The notes beneath the pieces are model-generated. The model did not search any database, was not told where the DNA came from, and saw nothing but the letters and a program-made list of their open reading frames with translations. Shown here one piece after another: positions 45,373 to 60,783 of a stretch of DNA of 64,000 nt. The DNA is from Escherichia phage vB_EcoM_E9, in sequence record PP886229. One strand, 5' to 3'. Position numbers and translations under genes: made by a program. Position 1 is the stretch's first letter; each line of letters begins with the position of its first letter.

Positions 45373-45643
45373 AGAGAAGTGGGAGATTTTACCACTAGTC
45401 AGTGAGGGTGGTAATGGTTGTGAAATGTACATGATACGTGGTCATGTCCCAGAACCAATTGCACTTGAGATGGTGAACAATTTTACAGATGGCTCTTACA
45501 AAGACTTAGGAGAACCAACTGTCAAGCAACAATGGGTTAAACCTGTACCAGACAGCACAGGTAACTGTAGTGTACTTTATCACGTTGTAGACCCTGCAAA
45601 ATGCAAATCTGCAATGGCAGTAACAAACGTAACTTTTGATTGA
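45365..45643 (+). CDS. hypothetical protein
   Basis: 92 aa ORF. Confidence 0.3.
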   Translation: MAKEKWEILPLVSEGGNGCEMYMIRGHVPEPIALEMVNNFTDGSYKDLGEPTVKQQWVKPVPDSTGNCSVLYHVVDPAKCKSAMAVTNVTFD

Positions 45644-46536
45644 GAGAGAAAATTATGAAAACTATTATTGAAGCCGTTGTCACCGCACAAGAGAAATTCT
45701 TCCACACAGAAAAATTTAATATCATCCAATTTCCATCTGGAGAAATTGGTGGAAACTTCTCTGAAGACTTTGTTAAGTTTACTGAGCGTAATGCTGGTAA
45801 GATTGACAATGTTATATTGACTGTGCAGGGATATGATAAAGATACACTGTTTGCATTAGCTTTGGCTAAGGATGCCGTTGACAGTCTTGTTCCATACAAA
45901 TCAGCGATGAAAACCGTTGTTTTCGGGTTCTTACCAAATGCTCGATATGACCGACATATGTTCAAAGGTGATTCAGCAGCACTGAAAGCTTTTGCCAACC
46001 TCGTTAATGCAATGGGCTTTGATGCAGTGTGTGCTCTTGACCCTCACAGTAATGTGGCAGAAAACTTATTCAAGTGCTTTCAGAGCATGAAGCAAAAAGA
46101 TGTAGCAGCACACTTTGCAAGTGACCCACGCATTGATTTCTTGGTAGCCCCAGATGCAGGTGCAGCTAAGAAGACTGAAGAGACTGCTAAAGAGGTAGAT
46201 AAGCCATACATCACAATGTCTAAAGTACGTAACCTTAAGACTGGTGAAATTACTGGTATGCGAATCCTTGATGATGTTGATTTGACAGATAAAACCGTCA
46301 TGATTCTTGATGATATTTGCGATGGGGGCCGAACCTTCATAGAAGCAGCTAAACATCTTCGTGAAGCAGGTGCAAAACGTGTGGAACTCTATGTAACTCA
46401 TGGTATTTTCTCTAAAGGTGTTGAAAGCTTACTTGACAATGGTATTGACCATATCTACACTACAAACACTTTAGGTGAAGCTAAAGACCGTGGCTTAACA
46501 CATTATGGTCAGGTTACTGTAGCAACAATTGATTAA
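45640..46536 (+). CDS. ribose-phosphate pyrophosphokinase family protein (Prs-like; candidate ADP-ribose pyrophosphokinase)
   Basis: 298 aa with phosphoribosyl-binding loop ..VMILDDICDGGRTF..; immediately upstream of a NAMPT-like gene. Confidence 0.65.
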   Translation: MREKIMKTIIEAVVTAQEKFFHTEKFNIIQFPSGEIGGNFSEDFVKFTERNAGKIDNVILTVQGYDKDTLFALALAKDAVDSLVPYKSAMKTVVFGFLPNARYDRHMFKGDSAALKAFANLVNAMGFDAVCALDPHSNVAENLFKCFQSMKQKDVAAHFASDPRIDFLVAPDAGAAKKTEETAKEVDKPYITMSKVRNLKTGEITGMRILDDVDLTDKTVMILDDICDGGRTFIEAAKHLREAGAKRVELYVTHGIFSKGVESLLDNGIDHIYTTNTLGEAKDRGLTHYGQVTVATID

Positions 46537-46545
46537 AACTTTATA

Positions 46546-46568
46546 GGGGCTTGTAAGCCCCATTTTGA
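46546..46568 (+). terminator. hairpin terminator/attenuator
   Basis: GGGGCTT-gt-AAGCCCC followed by ATTTTG. Confidence 0.4.
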
Positions 46569-46581
46569 GAGAGATTAAAAG

Positions 46582-48363
46582 ATGACTAAATCACTTTATG
46601 CAGTACCAGCAGGTTTAAACGCAGATGCTTACAAATCTGGTCACATCTACCAGTATCCTAGCGCAACAGAGTACTTGATGTTCAACCTGACACCACGTAG
46701 TGACAAATGGTTTAACAGCCCCTTAGCAATTGATGGTGTAGTTGCTTTCGGTATTCAACGTTTTGTTAAAGATTACCTGATAGACCACTGGAACGCCACA
46801 TTCTTCGAACGTGACAAAAAAGAAGCAATTGACGAAATCTTAGAAGTCATGAACGGTGTTCTGGGTAAAGATGCTATTGGTCGAGAACATTGGGAAGCAC
46901 TCCACGACTTAGGTTATCTACCAGTCGAAGTCTACGCTGTAGAAGAAGGTACAGTTGTCCCTATGCGTGTGCCAATGATTGTCTTCCAGAACACTGTTTC
47001 AGGTTTCCATTGGGTAGCGGGGTATCTGGAAGATGCTTTCTCTGCTGAGATTTGGAAGGCTTGTACCATTGCAACTATTGCATTGCACTACAAACGTATC
47101 TGTAAGAAGTGGGCTGACCTTACTTGTGACAACGACTTGCATTTACCTTATCAGTGCCATGACTTTGCTATGCGTGGTATGTCTGGCTTTACTGATGACG
47201 CATTTAACGCTGTAGGCCACTTAACCAGCTTTAAAGGGACTGATAGCTTCCCTGCTGTGTATACAGCTAAACGCATCTATGGACAGTCCTACCCAATCTC
47301 TGATATTGGTAGTTCTGTACCAGCCACTGAACATTCTGTAATGTGTGCAAACATTGCTTGGGAAGGTGGTAACGAGTTGATTGAAGAAGAAAGACGCTTT
47401 AAAGGTGAGTTACAAACCTTCCGTCGTTTCTTAACAGAAACTTACCCAACTGGTATTGCAAGTGTTGTTTCAGATACTTATAACTTCTGGAGAACTGTAT
47501 CAGTCATATTGCCAGAACTCCGTAAAGAGATTATGGAACGTGATGGCAAACTGGTAATTCGTCCTGATTCTGGAGACCCTGTACATATTGTCACAGGATA
47601 CAAAGCAATCCATTTAGAGTGTGCTAAAAAGGCTTATTACGAACACCTAAGTAAGCTGGAAGCCAGCGACACAATGCTGAATGCTGTTCTGAACATGAAG
47701 CTTGAAAACATCAATTATGGTATTGCTGGATGGCTACTGTCAGAAGGTTACGAAATGGTTGTTGACAGAGAAGACTTTGAAGTTGCTGATACAGTGCTGT
47801 TGAAAAATGCTTATGTGGTTGGTTCTGCAAACGTTGTAACACGTCCTGTAGCGGAGATTGATGGAGCTATCAAGACACTGTATAACATCTTTGGAGGAAC
47901 TATCAACTCTAAAGGTTTTAAAGTACTGGATGAGCACATTGGCCTTATTTATGGTGACTCTATCACGTTGGAACGTGCAAACGAAATCCTAAAGCGTTTG
48001 TATGAAATGGGTTTTGCAAGCTCTAACGTAGTGTTTGGTGTAGGTTCTTACACTTACCAGTACATGACTCGTGACACCTTTGCATTTGCTGTCAAAGCAA
48101 CTCTTGCAAGCATTGGTGGTAAAGAGATTATGCTCGCAAAAGACCCTAAAACAGATAGTGGTGTTAAGAAGTCTGCTTTTGGTGGTGTAGCACCTATGTG
48201 GGATGGTGAAAATCTGAAAGCTGTAGATGGCTATGGGTTCCAGAGCTTTGCAGATGCACTTGAACACCCAGCTTGTGCTTTACGCCTAGTCTTTAGTGAC
48301 TCTGAGCAGTTCGGCTACACAACTCTTGGTGATATTCGAAATAATATTGACAAGCAGCTTTAA
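46582..48363 (+). CDS. nicotinamide phosphoribosyltransferase family protein (NAMPT-like)
   Basis: 593 aa; N-terminal ..DAYKSGHIYQYP.. resembles the NAMPT DSYK.THY.QYP motif (recollection). Confidence 0.75.
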   Translation: MTKSLYAVPAGLNADAYKSGHIYQYPSATEYLMFNLTPRSDKWFNSPLAIDGVVAFGIQRFVKDYLIDHWNATFFERDKKEAIDEILEVMNGVLGKDAIGREHWEALHDLGYLPVEVYAVEEGTVVPMRVPMIVFQNTVSGFHWVAGYLEDAFSAEIWKACTIATIALHYKRICKKWADLTCDNDLHLPYQCHDFAMRGMSGFTDDAFNAVGHLTSFKGTDSFPAVYTAKRIYGQSYPISDIGSSVPATEHSVMCANIAWEGGNELIEEERRFKGELQTFRRFLTETYPTGIASVVSDTYNFWRTVSVILPELRKEIMERDGKLVIRPDSGDPVHIVTGYKAIHLECAKKAYYEHLSKLEASDTMLNAVLNMKLENINYGIAGWLLSEGYEMVVDREDFEVADTVLLKNAYVVGSANVVTRPVAEIDGAIKTLYNIFGGTINSKGFKVLDEHIGLIYGDSITLERANEILKRLYEMGFASSNVVFGVGSYTYQYMTRDTFAFAVKATLASIGGKEIMLAKDPKTDSGVKKSAFGGVAPMWDGENLKAVDGYGFQSFADALEHPACALRLVFSDSEQFGYTTLGDIRNNIDKQL

Positions 48364-54292: not shown

Positions 54293-54304
54293 GGTTAAGA
54301 TACA

Positions 54305-54325
54305 GGCTCCTTCGGGAGCCTTTTT
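54305..54325 (+). terminator. rho-independent terminator
   Basis: GGCTCC-ttcg-GGAGCC followed by TTTTT. Confidence 0.6.
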
Positions 54326-54344: not shown

Positions 54345-54692
54345 ATGACATTTAAAGAGTTCTGCCAAGCTACTTTCATAATTGTTTTCTTAGTTGGAGC
54401 AGGTGTCTGGGGAGGATACTCTTACAGAGACTACCAAGTTGCTGAGACTGAGCTAAATAATGAGAAACTAATAAGTGTTGCTAAAGATGCTTATCAGGAA
54501 GGTTTAGCCACACTCAGCACCAATTACAAAAATGATTTGAAAGATGTGCTTGCTAAGAATAAGCATACAAAAGAGGTACTAACATATGAAAAGACTAAGC
54601 CAGAGTTTTATAATGTTTGTGTTACTGATAATTATGTCAGGGTGTTCAACGAACAAAGCGAACAGTACATTCAAAAACTACCAAGTAAGTGA
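54345..54692 (+). CDS. i-spanin-like protein (Rz-like)
   Basis: 115 aa; N-terminal TM segment (FIIVFLVGAGVWGGY) then helical periplasmic region; 3' end overlaps a lipoprotein ORF in another frame. Confidence 0.4.
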   Translation: MTFKEFCQATFIIVFLVGAGVWGGYSYRDYQVAETELNNEKLISVAKDAYQEGLATLSTNYKNDLKDVLAKNKHTKEVLTYEKTKPEFYNVCVTDNYVRVFNEQSEQYIQKLPSK

Positions 54693-54855
54693 GAGTGACA
54701 AGTACACTCAAGAAGAATCAAGATTCACTGTCAAAGGTAATACTGGTAGTGATGTGGCAGCAGCCCTTGAATTTTATCGTGATGGTTTTTACCAGTGCAC
54801 AATAAAAGCTAATAACCTTATTGATATGATTTTATTAGGGAACAAACAGCAATGA
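54586..54855 (+). CDS. o-spanin-like lipoprotein (Rz1-like)
   Basis: 89 aa; MKRLSQSFIMFVLLIIMSGC signal peptide with lipobox; start embedded in the 3' end of the preceding gene. Confidence 0.4.
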   Translation: MKRLSQSFIMFVLLIIMSGCSTNKANSTFKNYQVSESDKYTQEESRFTVKGNTGSDVAAALEFYRDGFYQCTIKANNLIDMILLGNKQQ

Positions 54856-55121
54856 CAGAGAATGAAGATACTTTCTATGTAGAAGGGTACTTACTGCTAC
54901 CACGACCAAAAGAAACTTATATGCGGGTTGATTTCTCACCAACCATTATGGATAACGTGATGTGTCATATCTTTATGCAAGGTGTCACAGCACAGCTTAA
55001 GCATGTTGGTAAAGAGTGCAAAATAAAGGTTGACACTCATCCAGAAATCAAAGAGAATCACTACACATGGTTCTTACCAGACTCTAAAGAAATCTTAGCA
55101 GTTCTTAAAACGAGGAAATGA
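54852..55121 (+). CDS. hypothetical protein
   Basis: 89 aa ORF. Confidence 0.3.
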   Translation: MTENEDTFYVEGYLLLPRPKETYMRVDFSPTIMDNVMCHIFMQGVTAQLKHVGKECKIKVDTHPEIKENHYTWFLPDSKEILAVLKTRK

Positions 55122-55432
55122 TTATGCAATTCCAGCCAACAAATCGCGGATTTTCTTATGCAGAATTTAAAGATGCTAAAGGGGAAATTTGTACTTTACA
55201 AGAGAGTTCATCATATGAACCATGTATCTGGTTAGGTGCTAAAGAGGTCTCTGTTCAGTACCTAGATGGTGGCTGGAAAACACTTGATATCCCAGCATTA
55301 GTAGGCAAAGATTTTGTAGGTAACCAAAGAATGAAACTCAACCAAGAACAGGTGAAAGAGTTATTGCCATACCTTCAGTACTTTGCTGAAAATGGTGAAT
55401 TACCAACAGAGGAACTTACAAATGCAGATTAA
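55118..55432 (+). CDS. hypothetical protein
   Basis: 104 aa ORF. Confidence 0.3.
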   Translation: MIMQFQPTNRGFSYAEFKDAKGEICTLQESSSYEPCIWLGAKEVSVQYLDGGWKTLDIPALVGKDFVGNQRMKLNQEQVKELLPYLQYFAENGELPTEELTNAD

Positions 55433-55748
55433 TGGAAGAGACTTTGTAGCCGTTTACTACGAGAAAGATAAAGAAGTTGGCGTAGCACAAGTATCTTATG
55501 GTAATGGTAAGTGGTTATATGGCACAATCGCAGTAGTAGGAACAAGAAGTGATACAAAAACTTTTAAAGACTGTGTTGACCTTCTTGAAGAATCCATCCA
55601 CAATCATTGGTGTCTGATATGGATGACTGACAACGAAGTGATAGAACGCTTCAAAAAGATTGGTATCAACATTGATAGCATTGAGCATGTTGACTTGTAT
55701 GAGCTAACTGAGAAGGTAAATTATGAAAGTAATACTAGCCAGAGATAA
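55422..55748 (+). CDS. hypothetical protein
   Basis: Start trimmed to ATG 55422 (MQINGRDF..). Confidence 0.3.
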   Translation: MQINGRDFVAVYYEKDKEVGVAQVSYGNGKWLYGTIAVVGTRSDTKTFKDCVDLLEESIHNHWCLIWMTDNEVIERFKKIGINIDSIEHVDLYELTEKVNYESNTSQR

Positions 55749-55950
55749 AAAGACACGGAAAATTATCCGGTCAGCAGTATTCATTGGAAGAAATAAAGTG
55801 ATTCCATTTACAGCAAATGATGTGATAGCTTACCGGAAGAACTTAGTATTCACTGACTGTTTACGTGGCTTCATCTCTGAACCATTAGAAGACTTTAAAA
55901 GTCGTTGTGGTAAAGGTATCATCATTCAAGAGGCAATTATTCATGGCTGA
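55723..55950 (+). CDS. hypothetical protein
   Basis: 75 aa ORF. Confidence 0.3.
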   Translation: MKVILARDKKTRKIIRSAVFIGRNKVIPFTANDVIAYRKNLVFTDCLRGFISEPLEDFKSRCGKGIIIQEAIIHG

Positions 55951-56143
55951 CTTCTGTAAAGACTGTGCTATTGAAATGTTCGGACGTGATACAGGTGACT
56001 TAAAAGGTCTTATCACTGAAGATGACTTTAAAGCTGGCTATGCAATGCCAGTAATCTGTGAAGGTTGTGGATGTATCTGGGTAGACCATGAAGGACAGCG
56101 TGTAAAACCTTCAGAAGATAAAGAATCTTGGGAGAGATGCTAA
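55943..56143 (+). CDS. small Cys-rich protein
   Basis: Start trimmed to MADFCKDC..; Cys pairs CKDC and CEGCGC. Confidence 0.3.
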   Translation: MADFCKDCAIEMFGRDTGDLKGLITEDDFKAGYAMPVICEGCGCIWVDHEGQRVKPSEDKESWERC

Positions 56144-56929
56144 ATGGGTATTGTAAAAATCATCAATGGGGATATCTTCTCAGCATTTGATAAAGGTAAG
56201 TTTGATATTATTGGTCACGGTTGCAACTGTATGAACTTAATGGGTGCAGGTATCGCTGACAAGATTTCTAAACTTTACCCAAAAGCATATGAGACTGATA
56301 CAGAAGTTTATCTGTATGCAGGTGGTATAGGTCACAAACCCTGTGAAAATTTACTAGGTAATTTCTCTGTAGCACGTTTAAAACAAGGTCGTATAGCTAA
56401 TCTTTACACTCAGCTTAAGACTGGTAAAGATGCCCGATACAGTGCTTTAGAGTCATCTTTGAAACAGCTTAACAGATACTGTGAAGTCAATCAGTTGAAG
56501 AAAGTCGGGTTACCTATGATTGGTGCAGGTATCGGTGGGCTAGACCCTCAAGCCATCACAGTTATCATTAATCAGGTGATGAAGAGTGTAGATGTTTATC
56601 TGTATGTCTACGAAGGAGAGATGTACCACAAGTTACGCTCAGGTTGGAAGAACTACTGTGAGCCAGAATACTTTGCAGGTGTAGTAACGTTCACAGATGA
56701 TGCAGTTACCCTCTTCAGACGAAGAAAAGGTAAGATACATCAAAGTAACCCTCCGGTTGAGAAGATGTCTCTAAGTAACGCTCTAGTTACCCACATGTCG
56801 AAGGGCAATCACAGGATAGCCGTAACATTTGGCAGTGATGCAGATACATATATCTATGCAAGAACTGATGAGGATATCGAGGAAATTTTCTCATCATCAG
56901 AAGTTACCTTCTTAGACGCAAAGAGCTAA
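56144..56929 (+). CDS. macro-domain protein (ADP-ribose-binding/processing)
   Basis: ..INGDIFSAFDKGKFDIIGHGCNCMNLMGAGIADKI.. and ..KVGLPMIGAGIGGLD.. match the two glycine-rich macro-domain signatures (recollection). Confidence 0.5.
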   Translation: MGIVKIINGDIFSAFDKGKFDIIGHGCNCMNLMGAGIADKISKLYPKAYETDTEVYLYAGGIGHKPCENLLGNFSVARLKQGRIANLYTQLKTGKDARYSALESSLKQLNRYCEVNQLKKVGLPMIGAGIGGLDPQAITVIINQVMKSVDVYLYVYEGEMYHKLRSGWKNYCEPEYFAGVVTFTDDAVTLFRRRKGKIHQSNPPVEKMSLSNALVTHMSKGNHRIAVTFGSDADTYIYARTDEDIEEIFSSSEVTFLDAKS

Positions 56930-56995
56930 GAAACTCTGTAGAATATTCACAATAGGTTAAGCCTTTCTTATCTGGTAAATTTTTCAGGTAAGGAG

Positions 56996-57190
56996 GGCTT
57001 TTTCATTTCAGGATTGTGCAGGTAGAGTTCTGTAGAGAAATCTGTAGAGAGAATTTTGAACTCCAAAGAGAAAATTCATTTTCAAACTGTGCAGATAATC
57101 TCCAAAGAGCTTTTTCATTTTCAAAACGTGCAGACCCCGCTAAGGTCGGGCAAGAAAAATCATTTTCGAATTGTGCAGGTAGGTGGGTAC
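56996..57190. repeat. four direct iteron-like repeats (TTTTCATTTYCRAAAYTGTGCAG)
   Basis: Copies at about 56996, 57069, 57107 and 57155; ctccaaagag also duplicated; upstream of the first early promoter. Confidence 0.55.
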
Positions 57191-57356
57191 AGGTGGGAAT
57201 GTCGCCGTTTCTCACAAGGCTACCACATATGAAAAGAAAAGTCAACAGAAAAATTTGTAGCGGATTGAAAAATAATTCTTGATTGTAGTTCTGTTTTGTG
57301 GTAGTCGCGCGCCCGTTTCATTACAGTTTTTTGCAAAAATATTTTTAAAATTTTTC

Positions 57357-57991: not shown

Positions 57992-58285
57992 ATGGCTATT
58001 ATCAAAAACGTTGTAATTACTGCAAAAACTCGCGATGACGCTCGCATCATGGCGAAAAAGTTAGGCGGGAAAGTTGTTGACAACGGAAAACAATCTGCTG
58101 TAAGATGGGGCGTGAAGACTGATAAACAGTTGAAGTTAAAAAATTCACCAATAAACCTTTTTACATGTGTAAACACTATCGGGAAGACAAATGTATACAC
58201 GAAAAAGGCATATATCAGACGCGTAGCCATGACATCACCTATTCGCACAATGAGAAGTCATGCAAAGCTGAAAATTAATCGTTAA
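57992..58285 (+). CDS. early small protein E2
   Basis: 97 aa, basic; conserved RBS. Confidence 0.5.
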   Translation: MAIIKNVVITAKTRDDARIMAKKLGGKVVDNGKQSAVRWGVKTDKQLKLKNSPINLFTCVNTIGKTNVYTKKAYIRRVAMTSPIRTMRSHAKLKINR

Positions 58286-60240: not shown

Positions 60241-60783
60241 ATGAAATGCTTTCACGGTACTACTCAAGAAAACTTCGTCAACCTGATTAATAACGGTGAT
60301 AAACCATCAGGCGCATGGAATTGTTCGGATATGGATGGCAATTTTTACGTTTATCCAGAAAATAAAATCTATGGCGACGATGAGGAAGAAATAATCTCTG
60401 AAGGCATTCAACAAGCTTTAGGTAATGCCACTATAACGGCAGCTTTTCAGATGAAAACTCAAAACATTGTTATCTTGGAACTTGATATTCCAGAAGATGA
60501 GTTGAATGATGATTATTCTTGTGATAATATGTCGAGTGTGGCAAGTTTTACAGAGTATTTTGATATAAGCTGGATTAAAAAGGTTTATATCACTGAATTT
60601 AATGCTATGTTTTCACCTTTTTGTCTTCCTTCACTGGATAACCCGAACTTAAACTATCTTGATGAGTCTCTGGAACTTCTCGCTAAAAGTGTTCAGCAAT
60701 CGGACAGTATTCAGGTTTTTTGTGACATCATGGATACACTAACAGGAAACATTGCAGAAGAGGATTTGAAGAGTTTTTTCTAA
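60241..60783 (+). CDS. early acidic protein E8
   Basis: 180 aa, strongly acidic (..GDDEEEIISEG.., ..LDIPEDELNDDYSCDN..). Confidence 0.5.
   Translation: MKCFHGTTQENFVNLINNGDKPSGAWNCSDMDGNFYVYPENKIYGDDEEEIISEGIQQALGNATITAAFQMKTQNIVILELDIPEDELNDDYSCDNMSSVASFTEYFDISWIKKVYITEFNAMFSPFCLPSLDNPNLNYLDESLELLAKSVQQSDSIQVFCDIMDTLTGNIAEEDLKSFF

Follow-up and report, generated by a model that had tools for sequence, protein, structure and literature searches.

The DNA analysed here, hereafter the window, is a stretch of 64,000 nucleotides from Escherichia phage vB_EcoM_E9 (record PP886229), a Felixounavirus (FelixO1-like) genome, and the subject of this report is a gene at 56144-56929 on the plus strand that encodes a macro-domain protein of 261 amino acids (aa). 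The open reading frame (ORF) list and the translation give a complete gene with an ATG start and a stop codon at 56927-56929, in exact agreement with the position, strand and product length given in a preliminary description made from the letters alone, and the opposite strand has many stops and no open frame. The product is very probably a two-domain counter-defence protein, of which aa 1-157 would form a catalytically competent, Poa1p-like phage macrodomain that binds ADP-ribose (ADPR) and hydrolyses at C1''. More tentatively, and with somewhat less than an even chance of being right, we propose that it is an AdfM-like DNA de-ADP-ribosylase, like T4 Tk.4/AdfM and SCO6735 of Streptomyces coelicolor. 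The 3 kb surrounding the gene have counterparts in 243 phage records, at 90-96% identity in most of them, full-length orthologues of the product occur in about 250 phage records, and the ratio of non-synonymous to synonymous substitution rates (dN/dS) of the gene is 0.05-0.34; the gene is confirmed as real far beyond chance.

The macro domain covers aa 1-157 (56144-56614, plus strand), as delimited with Pfam, AlphaFold2 (AF2), Foldseek and a profile comparison against the PDB, and is of the Poa1p-like type found in a phage clade with T4 Tk.4 and the Vibrio phage protein Adpp. Pfam Macro (PF01661) matched aa 25-138 (E=4.2e-7, 30.4 bits against a gathering cut-off of 22), PHROG 335 ("phosphatase") matched at E=2.4e-112, and a profile of the family recovered TARG1, DarG, SCO6735 and Poa1p from the PDB at E=1e-17 to 1e-11 (TARG1, E=5e-17). 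The AF2 model, built with 29 homologues, reached a mean predicted local distance difference test score (pLDDT) of 90.2 and a predicted template modelling score (pTM) of 0.88, with a pLDDT of about 90 in the macro domain. In Foldseek, its N-terminal part was closest to human TARG1/OARD1 and yeast Poa1p, with template modelling scores, normalised to the target, of 0.86 for TARG1, 0.80-0.82 for DarG and 0.77 for Poa1p, and a probability of 1.00 to TARG1, DarG, Poa1p and viral macrodomains. Since profile searches and structure prediction both back it, the macro fold named in the preliminary description is upheld, although only for aa 1-157 of the 261-aa product, the remaining ~100 aa being a separate domain that had been overlooked. 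The assignment is correct, yet already present in public annotation, where Felixounavirus records carry the entries "phosphatase", "putative macro domain protein" and "ymdB: O-acetyl-ADP-ribose deacetylase".

The model predicts a three-layer alpha/beta macro fold whose ADP-ribose cleft has two glycine-rich loops, MGAGIA and IGAGIGG, and both glycine-rich signatures quoted previously were found in the translation (GDIF at aa 9-12, FDIIGHGCNCMNLMGAGIA at aa 20-38 and VGLPMIGAGIGG at aa 121-132). Three motifs can be placed on the plus strand. The first, H25-G-C-N28-C-M-N-L-M-G34-A-G36-I-A38 (56216-56257), is the first glycine-rich, diphosphate-binding loop, with a conserved His and a catalytic-type Asn. 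The second, N86-L-Y-T-Q90 (56399-56413), is followed by a loop of 8 residues (aa 91-98), as placed by HMMER alignments to TARG1 and a table of loop lengths, and the third, P124-M-I-G127-A-G129-I-G-G132 (56513-56539), is the second glycine-rich loop, aligned to TARG1. The motif set of the family, H-x-x-N-C / [NH]-x-[YH]-x-Q / P-x-[IM]-G-x-G, is present in full, and in an alignment of 29 sequences the columns H25, G26, N28, C29, M33, G36, A38, N86, L87, T89, Q90, P124, G127 and G129 were invariant.

Behind the macro domain, a linker helix (aa 158-167; 56615-56644, plus strand; assigned by DSSP on the AF2 model) leads to an orphan C-terminal domain (CTD; aa ~168-261; 56645-56926, plus strand), modelled by AF2 as six beta-strands and a C-terminal helix. 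In the full model, most blocks of the CTD had a pLDDT of ~76-93 and the last residue one of 56; modelled alone, the domain gave a pLDDT of 80 and a pTM of 0.72. When 1.84 billion representatives were searched by profile, the only matches were macro-CTD fusions, their fragments and spurious repeat proteins (PQQ propeller, fn3, retroelement), i.e., the CTD occurs solely fused to this macro clade. Comparison with solved and viral structures gave no significant match, with weak, inconclusive PH-like hints. Three candidate identities were ruled out: a basic nucleic-acid binder (isoelectric point 4.8-9.5, net charge -5 to +4), the DarT-binding C-terminal domain of DarG (no match to DarG profiles) and a cREC domain (no match).

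Within Felixounavirus, dN/dS was 0.10-0.34 for the CTD and 0.05-0.11 for the macro domain, so that the CTD is under purifying selection, looser than that on the macro domain; between Felixounavirus and Mooglevirus the CTD value was 0.5-0.8, at a dS near saturation. The position of the CTD is kept across the subfamily and its sequence has diverged past recognition between genera. In Erwinia phage vB_EamM-M7, the Kolesnikvirus orthologue gp101 (L006:11998-12780) also has 260 aa, and its C-terminal ~100 residues have no detectable similarity to the CTD of the window protein; in this orthologue His25, invariant elsewhere, is replaced by Gln (IGQGCNC), and the Pfam Macro score is below the threshold. 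A maintained, fast-diverging domain fits the binding of a partner in an arms race, and equally a loosely constrained structural appendage. Our guess is that the CTD is a lineage-specific accessory module that serves to bind some partner, for instance a host effector, and not nucleic acid. It is the only unexplained, unusual part of the protein and would be the likeliest place for something new.

A tblastn search with the macro part (aa 3-160) returned 2,849 phage records, from T4-like phages, Vequintavirinae, Ackermannviridae, Pakpunavirus, Vibrio phages and others, with at least 80% of the query covered in 257 of them only. Two relatives have been characterised. T4 Tk.4, whose gene was confirmed in the T4 record (L002:4423-4890, minus strand), shares 34% identity with the window protein over aa 3-157 (E=6e-24); tk.4 was reported as the sole T4 gene depleted on DarTG2 hosts, its clean knock-out was sensitised, and the product was named AdfM (HIDEN-SEQ preprint, 10.1101/2025.11.20.689424). 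Adpp of Vibrio phage Gary is an ADPR-1''-phosphate phosphatase that lets the NARP1 pathway overcome the NAD+ phosphorylase defence aRES, and in some NARP1 operons it is encoded between Adps and Namat, a route called NARP1-AP (10.64898/2026.01.28.702374). Vibrio phage Pontus has this three-gene Adps-Adpp-Namat layout, and its Adpp orthologue matches the window protein at 27% identity (E=4e-13). By these homologies, the window protein, Tk.4 and Adpp therefore belong to one clade. In this context, the two roles that had been proposed for the gene, reversal of ADP-ribosylation-based defence and a complement to the NAD+ module, are partly supported, as each now has an experimental precedent in a homologue (Tk.4/AdfM and Adpp, respectively).

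In a neighbour-joining tree of 43 sequences, the proteins with the C-terminal extension were monophyletic (78% bootstrap), and the window macro domain was on average 35% identical to members of the Tk.4-like group and 29% identical to those of the Adpp group. The window protein, the 17 members of the CTD clade without exception, Tk.4 and 11 of 12 other standalone phage macro proteins have 8 residues in the loop from the conserved Gln to the next helix, and every one of these short-loop proteins carries the exact motif NLYTQ. Among 11 non-redundant macro proteins from NARP1 operons, all have a loop of 12-15 residues, rich in aromatic residues, after the Gln; motif counts in preprint Table S1 (~128 entries) were YGQY 103, YTQY 13, HAQ 4 and HSQ 1 (at least 121). 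These features (NLYTQ with an 8-residue loop, and the 12-15-residue loop) are operational ones of this analysis and not definitions of the authors cited, and by them the sequence of the window protein groups with the Tk.4 type and not with the Adpp type of NARP1 operons. Because the loop follows the residue contacting the distal ribose, we infer that it is plausibly a determinant of substrate specificity. The macro homologues of Vequintavirinae (CR3) and Ackermannviridae (Vi01) lie among early and DNA-metabolism genes, apart from any NARP1 gene. The ranking of PDB hits was dropped as a guide to function, since for the validated Adpp, too, TARG1 comes out on top and Poa1p follows at just E=0.79, which makes the ranking uninformative for choosing between functions.

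The active site is of a glutamine type. In HMMER alignments, the catalytic Lys84 of TARG1 corresponds to Gln90 and Asp125 to Gly131; the TARG1 dyad and the catalytic lysine of DarG (K80) are both absent from the window protein, and the lysine mechanisms of TARG1 and DarG are therefore inapplicable. Gln90 stands at the position of TARG1 Lys84, DarG Lys80 and SCO6735 Gln85, the last equivalence being transitive via TARG1 and not from a direct alignment. In SCO6735, the exchange Q85A abolished cleavage of thymidine-linked ADP-ribose from DNA, and a water-mediated mechanism was proposed (PMC9411070). Since this Gln-type enzyme cleaves such a linkage, the missing lysine does not exclude DNA de-ADP-ribosylation. 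Furthermore, N28 of the first loop aligns in MAFFT with N23 of the PhiKZ AdfM, of which the N23A mutant had lowered activity (PMC13309987). Gln90 cannot discriminate a DNA de-ADP-ribosylase from a phosphatase, because the validated phosphatase Adpp has Gln as well. The roles of residues H23 and S30 of Poa1p, as suggested by PDB entry titles, were not used as evidence.

Under the AdfM-like reading, the two glycine-rich loops would bind ADP-ribose, and the macrodomain would hydrolyse the group on C1'' of the distal ribose and release free ADP-ribose. Asn28 and Gln90 would carry catalysis, with Gln90 positioning the distal ribose for an activated water and replacing the Lys of DarG and TARG1. The ADP-ribose put by the host toxin DarT2 on thymidines of single-stranded phage DNA would be removed, replication would continue, and the freed ADP-ribose would be the substrate of the phage's own NARP1 pathway.

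Several points weigh against this assignment. The anti-DarTG2 role of the T4 protein was assigned from genetics and structural resemblance, in one preprint, and DarG profiles give the window protein just 46 bits (46.4 with NCBIfam NF048014, against a cut-off of 250, and 45.9 with the PADLOC DarG profile), compared with 133-138 for PhiKZ gp104, 30-36 for Tk.4 and 36-46 for Adpp. Between Tk.4 and the Pontus Adpp orthologue, identity reaches 36%, so that the two activities may be inseparable by sequence and may coexist, and the deeper nodes of the tree, among the CTD clade, the Tk.4-like and the Adpp groups, have less than 20% bootstrap. The biochemically validated Adpp carries the same His/Asn/Gln set. 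A short-loop NLYTQ relative from a metagenomic contig, P0026 (L012:1250-2269), is fused to a cREC_REC domain (PF20274, E=4.7e-7), an architecture which suggests processing of ADPR-1'',2''-cyclic phosphate or ADPR-1''-phosphate and points short-loop macro proteins toward small-molecule ADPR-phosphate chemistry too. The CTD, not being basic, lends no support to DNA binding, and NARP1 and the macro-CTD gene occur together in essentially every genome of the lineage. Finally, a knock-out screen of phage Bas63 (PhageMaP) did not flag the macro gene, and its main text names neither DarTG nor aRES; our literature search found no enzymatic or genetic characterisation of the window protein.

The joint occurrence with NARP1 bears on a different substrate. 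The NAD+ module placed at 45.6-48.4 kb in the preliminary description proved by Pfam to be a NARP1-type pair on the plus strand: an Adps-like gene of PRPP-synthetase fold (45640-46536; Pribosyltran, Pribosyl_synth), followed by a Namat-like gene of NAMPT fold (46582-48363; NAPRTase, E=2e-34, and NAMPT_N). The corresponding genes g79/g80 of Bas63 are NARP1 genes that counter SIR2-HerA (10.1101/2024.10.10.617714). The macro gene lies 7.8 kb downstream, outside the NARP1 operon, in a unit of its own bounded by two terminator-like hairpins on the plus strand. One of them, found by terminator scan and ORF layout at 54304-54321, marks the upstream edge of a block of small genes, and the other (56959-57000, terminator scan) has 17 bp and a U-tract (RNA fold of -25.6 kcal/mol, z = -3.3) and would end the transcription unit; since both bound the block of small same-strand genes at 54345-56929, the macro gene is the final member of a compact unit. 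The block is placed downstream of rIIA and rIIB and, with its numerous small ORFs, agrees with the label "early region" given to it before; judged from this position, the macro gene is probably expressed early.

The same unlinked arrangement, ~8-10 kb apart and in a separate unit, was seen in the metagenomic relatives L004 and L005, whose macro-CTD proteins are ~35% identical, and in Erwinia phage M7 (genus Kolesnikvirus), and the order Namat - rIIA - rIIB - ... - macro is kept in all three. Close homologues of Namat occur in 257 records and full-length macro-CTD proteins in 243-257, and the 60-80% identity band held 43 records in both searches; this co-occurrence is inseparable from common descent. 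The published survey of NARP1-associated macro genes counted only those at most two positions from NARP1, and its tables contain no Escherichia or Salmonella phages (10.64898/2026.01.28.702374). With the two-gene limit, the ~250 genomes of Ounavirinae in which ~8 kb separate NARP1 from a macro gene went unconsidered.

The main alternative, rather unlikely in itself and compatible with the AdfM-like reading, is that the window protein acts in trans with NARP1 as an Adpp-like ADPR-1''-phosphate phosphatase, i.e., as a split NARP1-AP. Host RES enzymes of the aRES type cut NAD+ into nicotinamide and ADPR-1''-phosphate. The latter is of no use to NARP1 as such; here, the macrodomain would strip the 1''-phosphate to yield ADP-ribose, from which Adps and Namat (45640-48363) would rebuild NAD+. 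Purified Gary Adpp turns ADPR-1P into ADPR and is required against aRES (10.64898/2026.01.28.702374), and the homology to the Pontus orthologue, which lies between Adps and Namat, the predicted Poa1p-like fold, with a conserved His that probably aligns with Poa1p, and the presence of NARP1 genes in the window are all in its favour, as are the short-loop macro of P0026 in a phosphate-processing context and the synteny of NARP1 and macro-CTD genes across Felixounavirus, Mooglevirus, Kolesnikvirus and the relatives of 35% identity, in a subfamily that the survey's limit would miss. However, in this lineage the macro gene is never inside the NARP1 operon, the protein is without the 12-15-residue aromatic loop common to all sampled NARP1-linked macro proteins, its identity to the Adpp group is below that to the Tk.4 group, its co-occurrence with NARP1 is confounded by shared ancestry, and most phages with this macro clade show no NARP1 linkage.

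It is unlikely that another ADP-ribose derivative is the target, be it hydrolysed or sequestered, such as ADP-ribosylated RNA or protein (e.g., that made by CmdT), O-acetyl-ADP-ribose or a Thoeris-type cyclic ADPR. Promiscuity at C1'' is a trait of this class of macrodomain, some records of the gene carry the O-acetyl-ADP-ribose deacetylase annotation, and the survey of Iyer and Aravind argues that phage macro proteins chiefly target small ADPR derivatives (PMC9503650). Moreover, RyDEP provides a precedent for a signal converted to ADPR that feeds NARP1 (10.64898/2026.05.28.727677), and the ADPR released by the window protein might do likewise. On the other hand, macrodomains go unmentioned in the RyDEP paper, the two characterised relatives, Tk.4 and Adpp, have different substrates, no homologue of the clade is known to act on such derivatives, and no sequence feature is specific to them. 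For the processing of Thoeris-type signals, which had been raised as one use of the protein, no support was found.

A reading that joins these activities, and that we hold to be doubtful, makes the CTD a fast-evolving effector-binding module. The protein would then be a phage analogue of full-length DarG2, at once eraser of the ADP-ribose mark and binder and blocker of the toxin or of another effector that targets NAD+, with a bifunctional macrodomain acting on thymidine-linked ADP-ribose and ADPR-1''-phosphate and passing its ADP-ribose product to NARP1. If true, two different host attacks would be turned into an NAD+ precursor, and the CTD would constitute a new fold family, with binding in anti-defence as its function.

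Returning to the gene itself, a Shine-Dalgarno-like GGGAGAG (56130-56136, plus strand; direct reading of the sequence) lies ~8-14 nucleotides 5' of the ATG, at a site equivalent to that of a ribosome-binding site annotated in phage Mushroom. The TAA stop of the upstream ORF (56141-56143) abuts the ATG, which suggests translational coupling of the two genes. That ORF (55943-56143, plus strand) encodes 66 aa, matches PHROG 2210 (unknown function) and has the CxxC...CxxC spacing typical of a zinc ribbon. At the same position, relative L004 has another small CxxC...CxxC protein, not alignable with the 55943-56143 product, and L005 has an unrelated protein; a conserved upstream partner gene was ruled out, as the abutting small Cys-rich ORF is not kept in relatives.

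The genes around and beyond the macro unit bear on a further alternative, which we regard as very unlikely: that the protein serves the phage's own NAD+/ADPR metabolism, by clearing the ADPR-1''-phosphate left by RNA repair of the Tpt1/KptA type or by reversing or limiting ADP-ribosylation by a phage-encoded transferase. The classical role of Poa1p is to clear the Tpt1 by-product, which speaks for such housekeeping. Bas63 gp107 was described as having "slight" structural similarity to the NAD-binding domain of RNA 2'-phosphotransferase (PhageMaP preprint, 10.1101/2024.10.10.617714), and an unannotated ORF of 180 aa at 60241-60783 (plus strand) opens with MKCFHGT. By gene counting, gp107 would tentatively fall at ~60-62 kb in the window, and its similarity is weak in its authors' own wording. 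The MKCFHGT start of ORF 60241-60783 (PHROG 3303, unknown function) is loosely like an NAD+-binding start of the H-Y-E type, and neither Pfam nor the PDB gave a sequence match for this ORF. Around the macro gene, sequence searches with Pfam, PHROG and the PDB recognised no Tpt1/KptA, 2H or ART family in the ORFs at 57.4-62.9 kb or in the small ORFs just upstream; furthermore, the T4 Tk.4 phenotype depends on a defence system.

Just 3' of the terminator closing the macro operon, a direct repeat of ~35 nucleotides (CTCCAAAGAG..TTCATTTTCAAANTGTGCAGA) is present in three copies at 57061-57179, with spacings of 39 and 45 nucleotides, and the repeat family also touches 56994-57021 and 57309-57336. 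Its 19-nucleotide core has three matches at no more than one mismatch in 57061-57179 and none elsewhere in the window at that stringency, with 0.17 matches expected at up to three mismatches. The repeat may be a regulatory or protein-binding array, and the ORFs called on both strands across 57003-57282 are probably artefacts of it. Further downstream, an ORF of 97 aa (57992-58285, plus strand) gave a BRCT match that, at 16.7 bits (E=0.009), stays under the cut-off of 21.3 and is probably due to chance.

In brief, the macro-CTD gene is a good but unsurprising anti-defence candidate with a solid, expected annotation. What is new is the placement in the Tk.4/Adpp clade, the Tk.4-type loop with a Gln-type site, the unlinked co-occurrence with NARP1 throughout Ounavirinae and the orphan CTD. 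As a core conserved candidate, the gene joins the themes of DarT-type DNA ADP-ribosylation and of NAD+ depletion and NARP1. If the AdfM-like reading is true, anti-DarTG2 activity reaches another large group of phages and a Gln-type active site becomes available for mechanistic study; if instead a trans-acting Adpp is true, NARP1-AP is far wider than the reported 15% of NARP1 phages, Ounavirinae being uncounted. Felixounaviruses are common phages of E. coli and Salmonella, with a use in diagnostics, and are considered for therapy. Consequently, knowing which defences they neutralise aids the prediction of host range.

Compared with known systems, the window protein is most readily set beside T4 Tk.4/AdfM, with which it shares a related first motif (HGCNCFHTMGSGVA in T4, HGCNCMNLMGAGIA in the window), NLYTQ with the 8-residue loop, a similar second glycine loop (P-x-IGAGIG) and a gene not linked to NARP1. 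Tk.4, however, is a standalone macrodomain of 155 aa, whereas the window protein has 261 aa with an extra orphan domain of ~100 aa; T4 is without NARP1, and the anti-DarTG2 phenotype is shown for T4 alone, by genetics alone. Adpp of phage Gary is of the same clade, with the His, Asn and Gln conserved, in a phage that also encodes Adps and Namat, but it sits between these two genes, has the motifs HQCNC and NVYGQY, a 15-residue aromatic loop and no C-terminal domain, whereas 7.8 kb separate the window gene from NARP1, and the loop of its product is the short one of 8 residues. SCO6735 (PDB 5e3b) is TARG1/ALC1-like, with Gln for the catalytic Lys and 59.6 bits against the family profile; it differs from the window protein in its bacterial origin, its single domain and a mobile loop that is longer and bears a lysine.

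DarG2 and PhiKZ gp104 have in common with the window protein an ADP-ribose-binding macro fold and the conserved catalytic-type Asn, and bacterial DarG2 also resembles it in the gross layout of a macro and a C-terminal domain (PMC11825919); against this, the CTD is without a match to the DarT-binding domain and Gln stands in place of the catalytic Lys. In vitro, the PhiKZ gp104 "AdfM" frees DNA of the ADP-ribose attached by DarT2 (PMC13309987). The name AdfM has been given independently to two macro subfamilies, the DarG-type of PhiKZ gp104, with a catalytic Lys, and the Poa1p-like type of T4 Tk.4, with Gln, and annotation transfer under this name will conflate them. Lastly, TARG1/OARD1 and Poa1p have the H-x-x-x...MG-x-G-I-A loop in common with the window protein, which differs from TARG1 in Gln90/Gly131 in place of the Lys84/Asp125 dyad and whose sequence similarity to Poa1p is marginal (E ~0.01).

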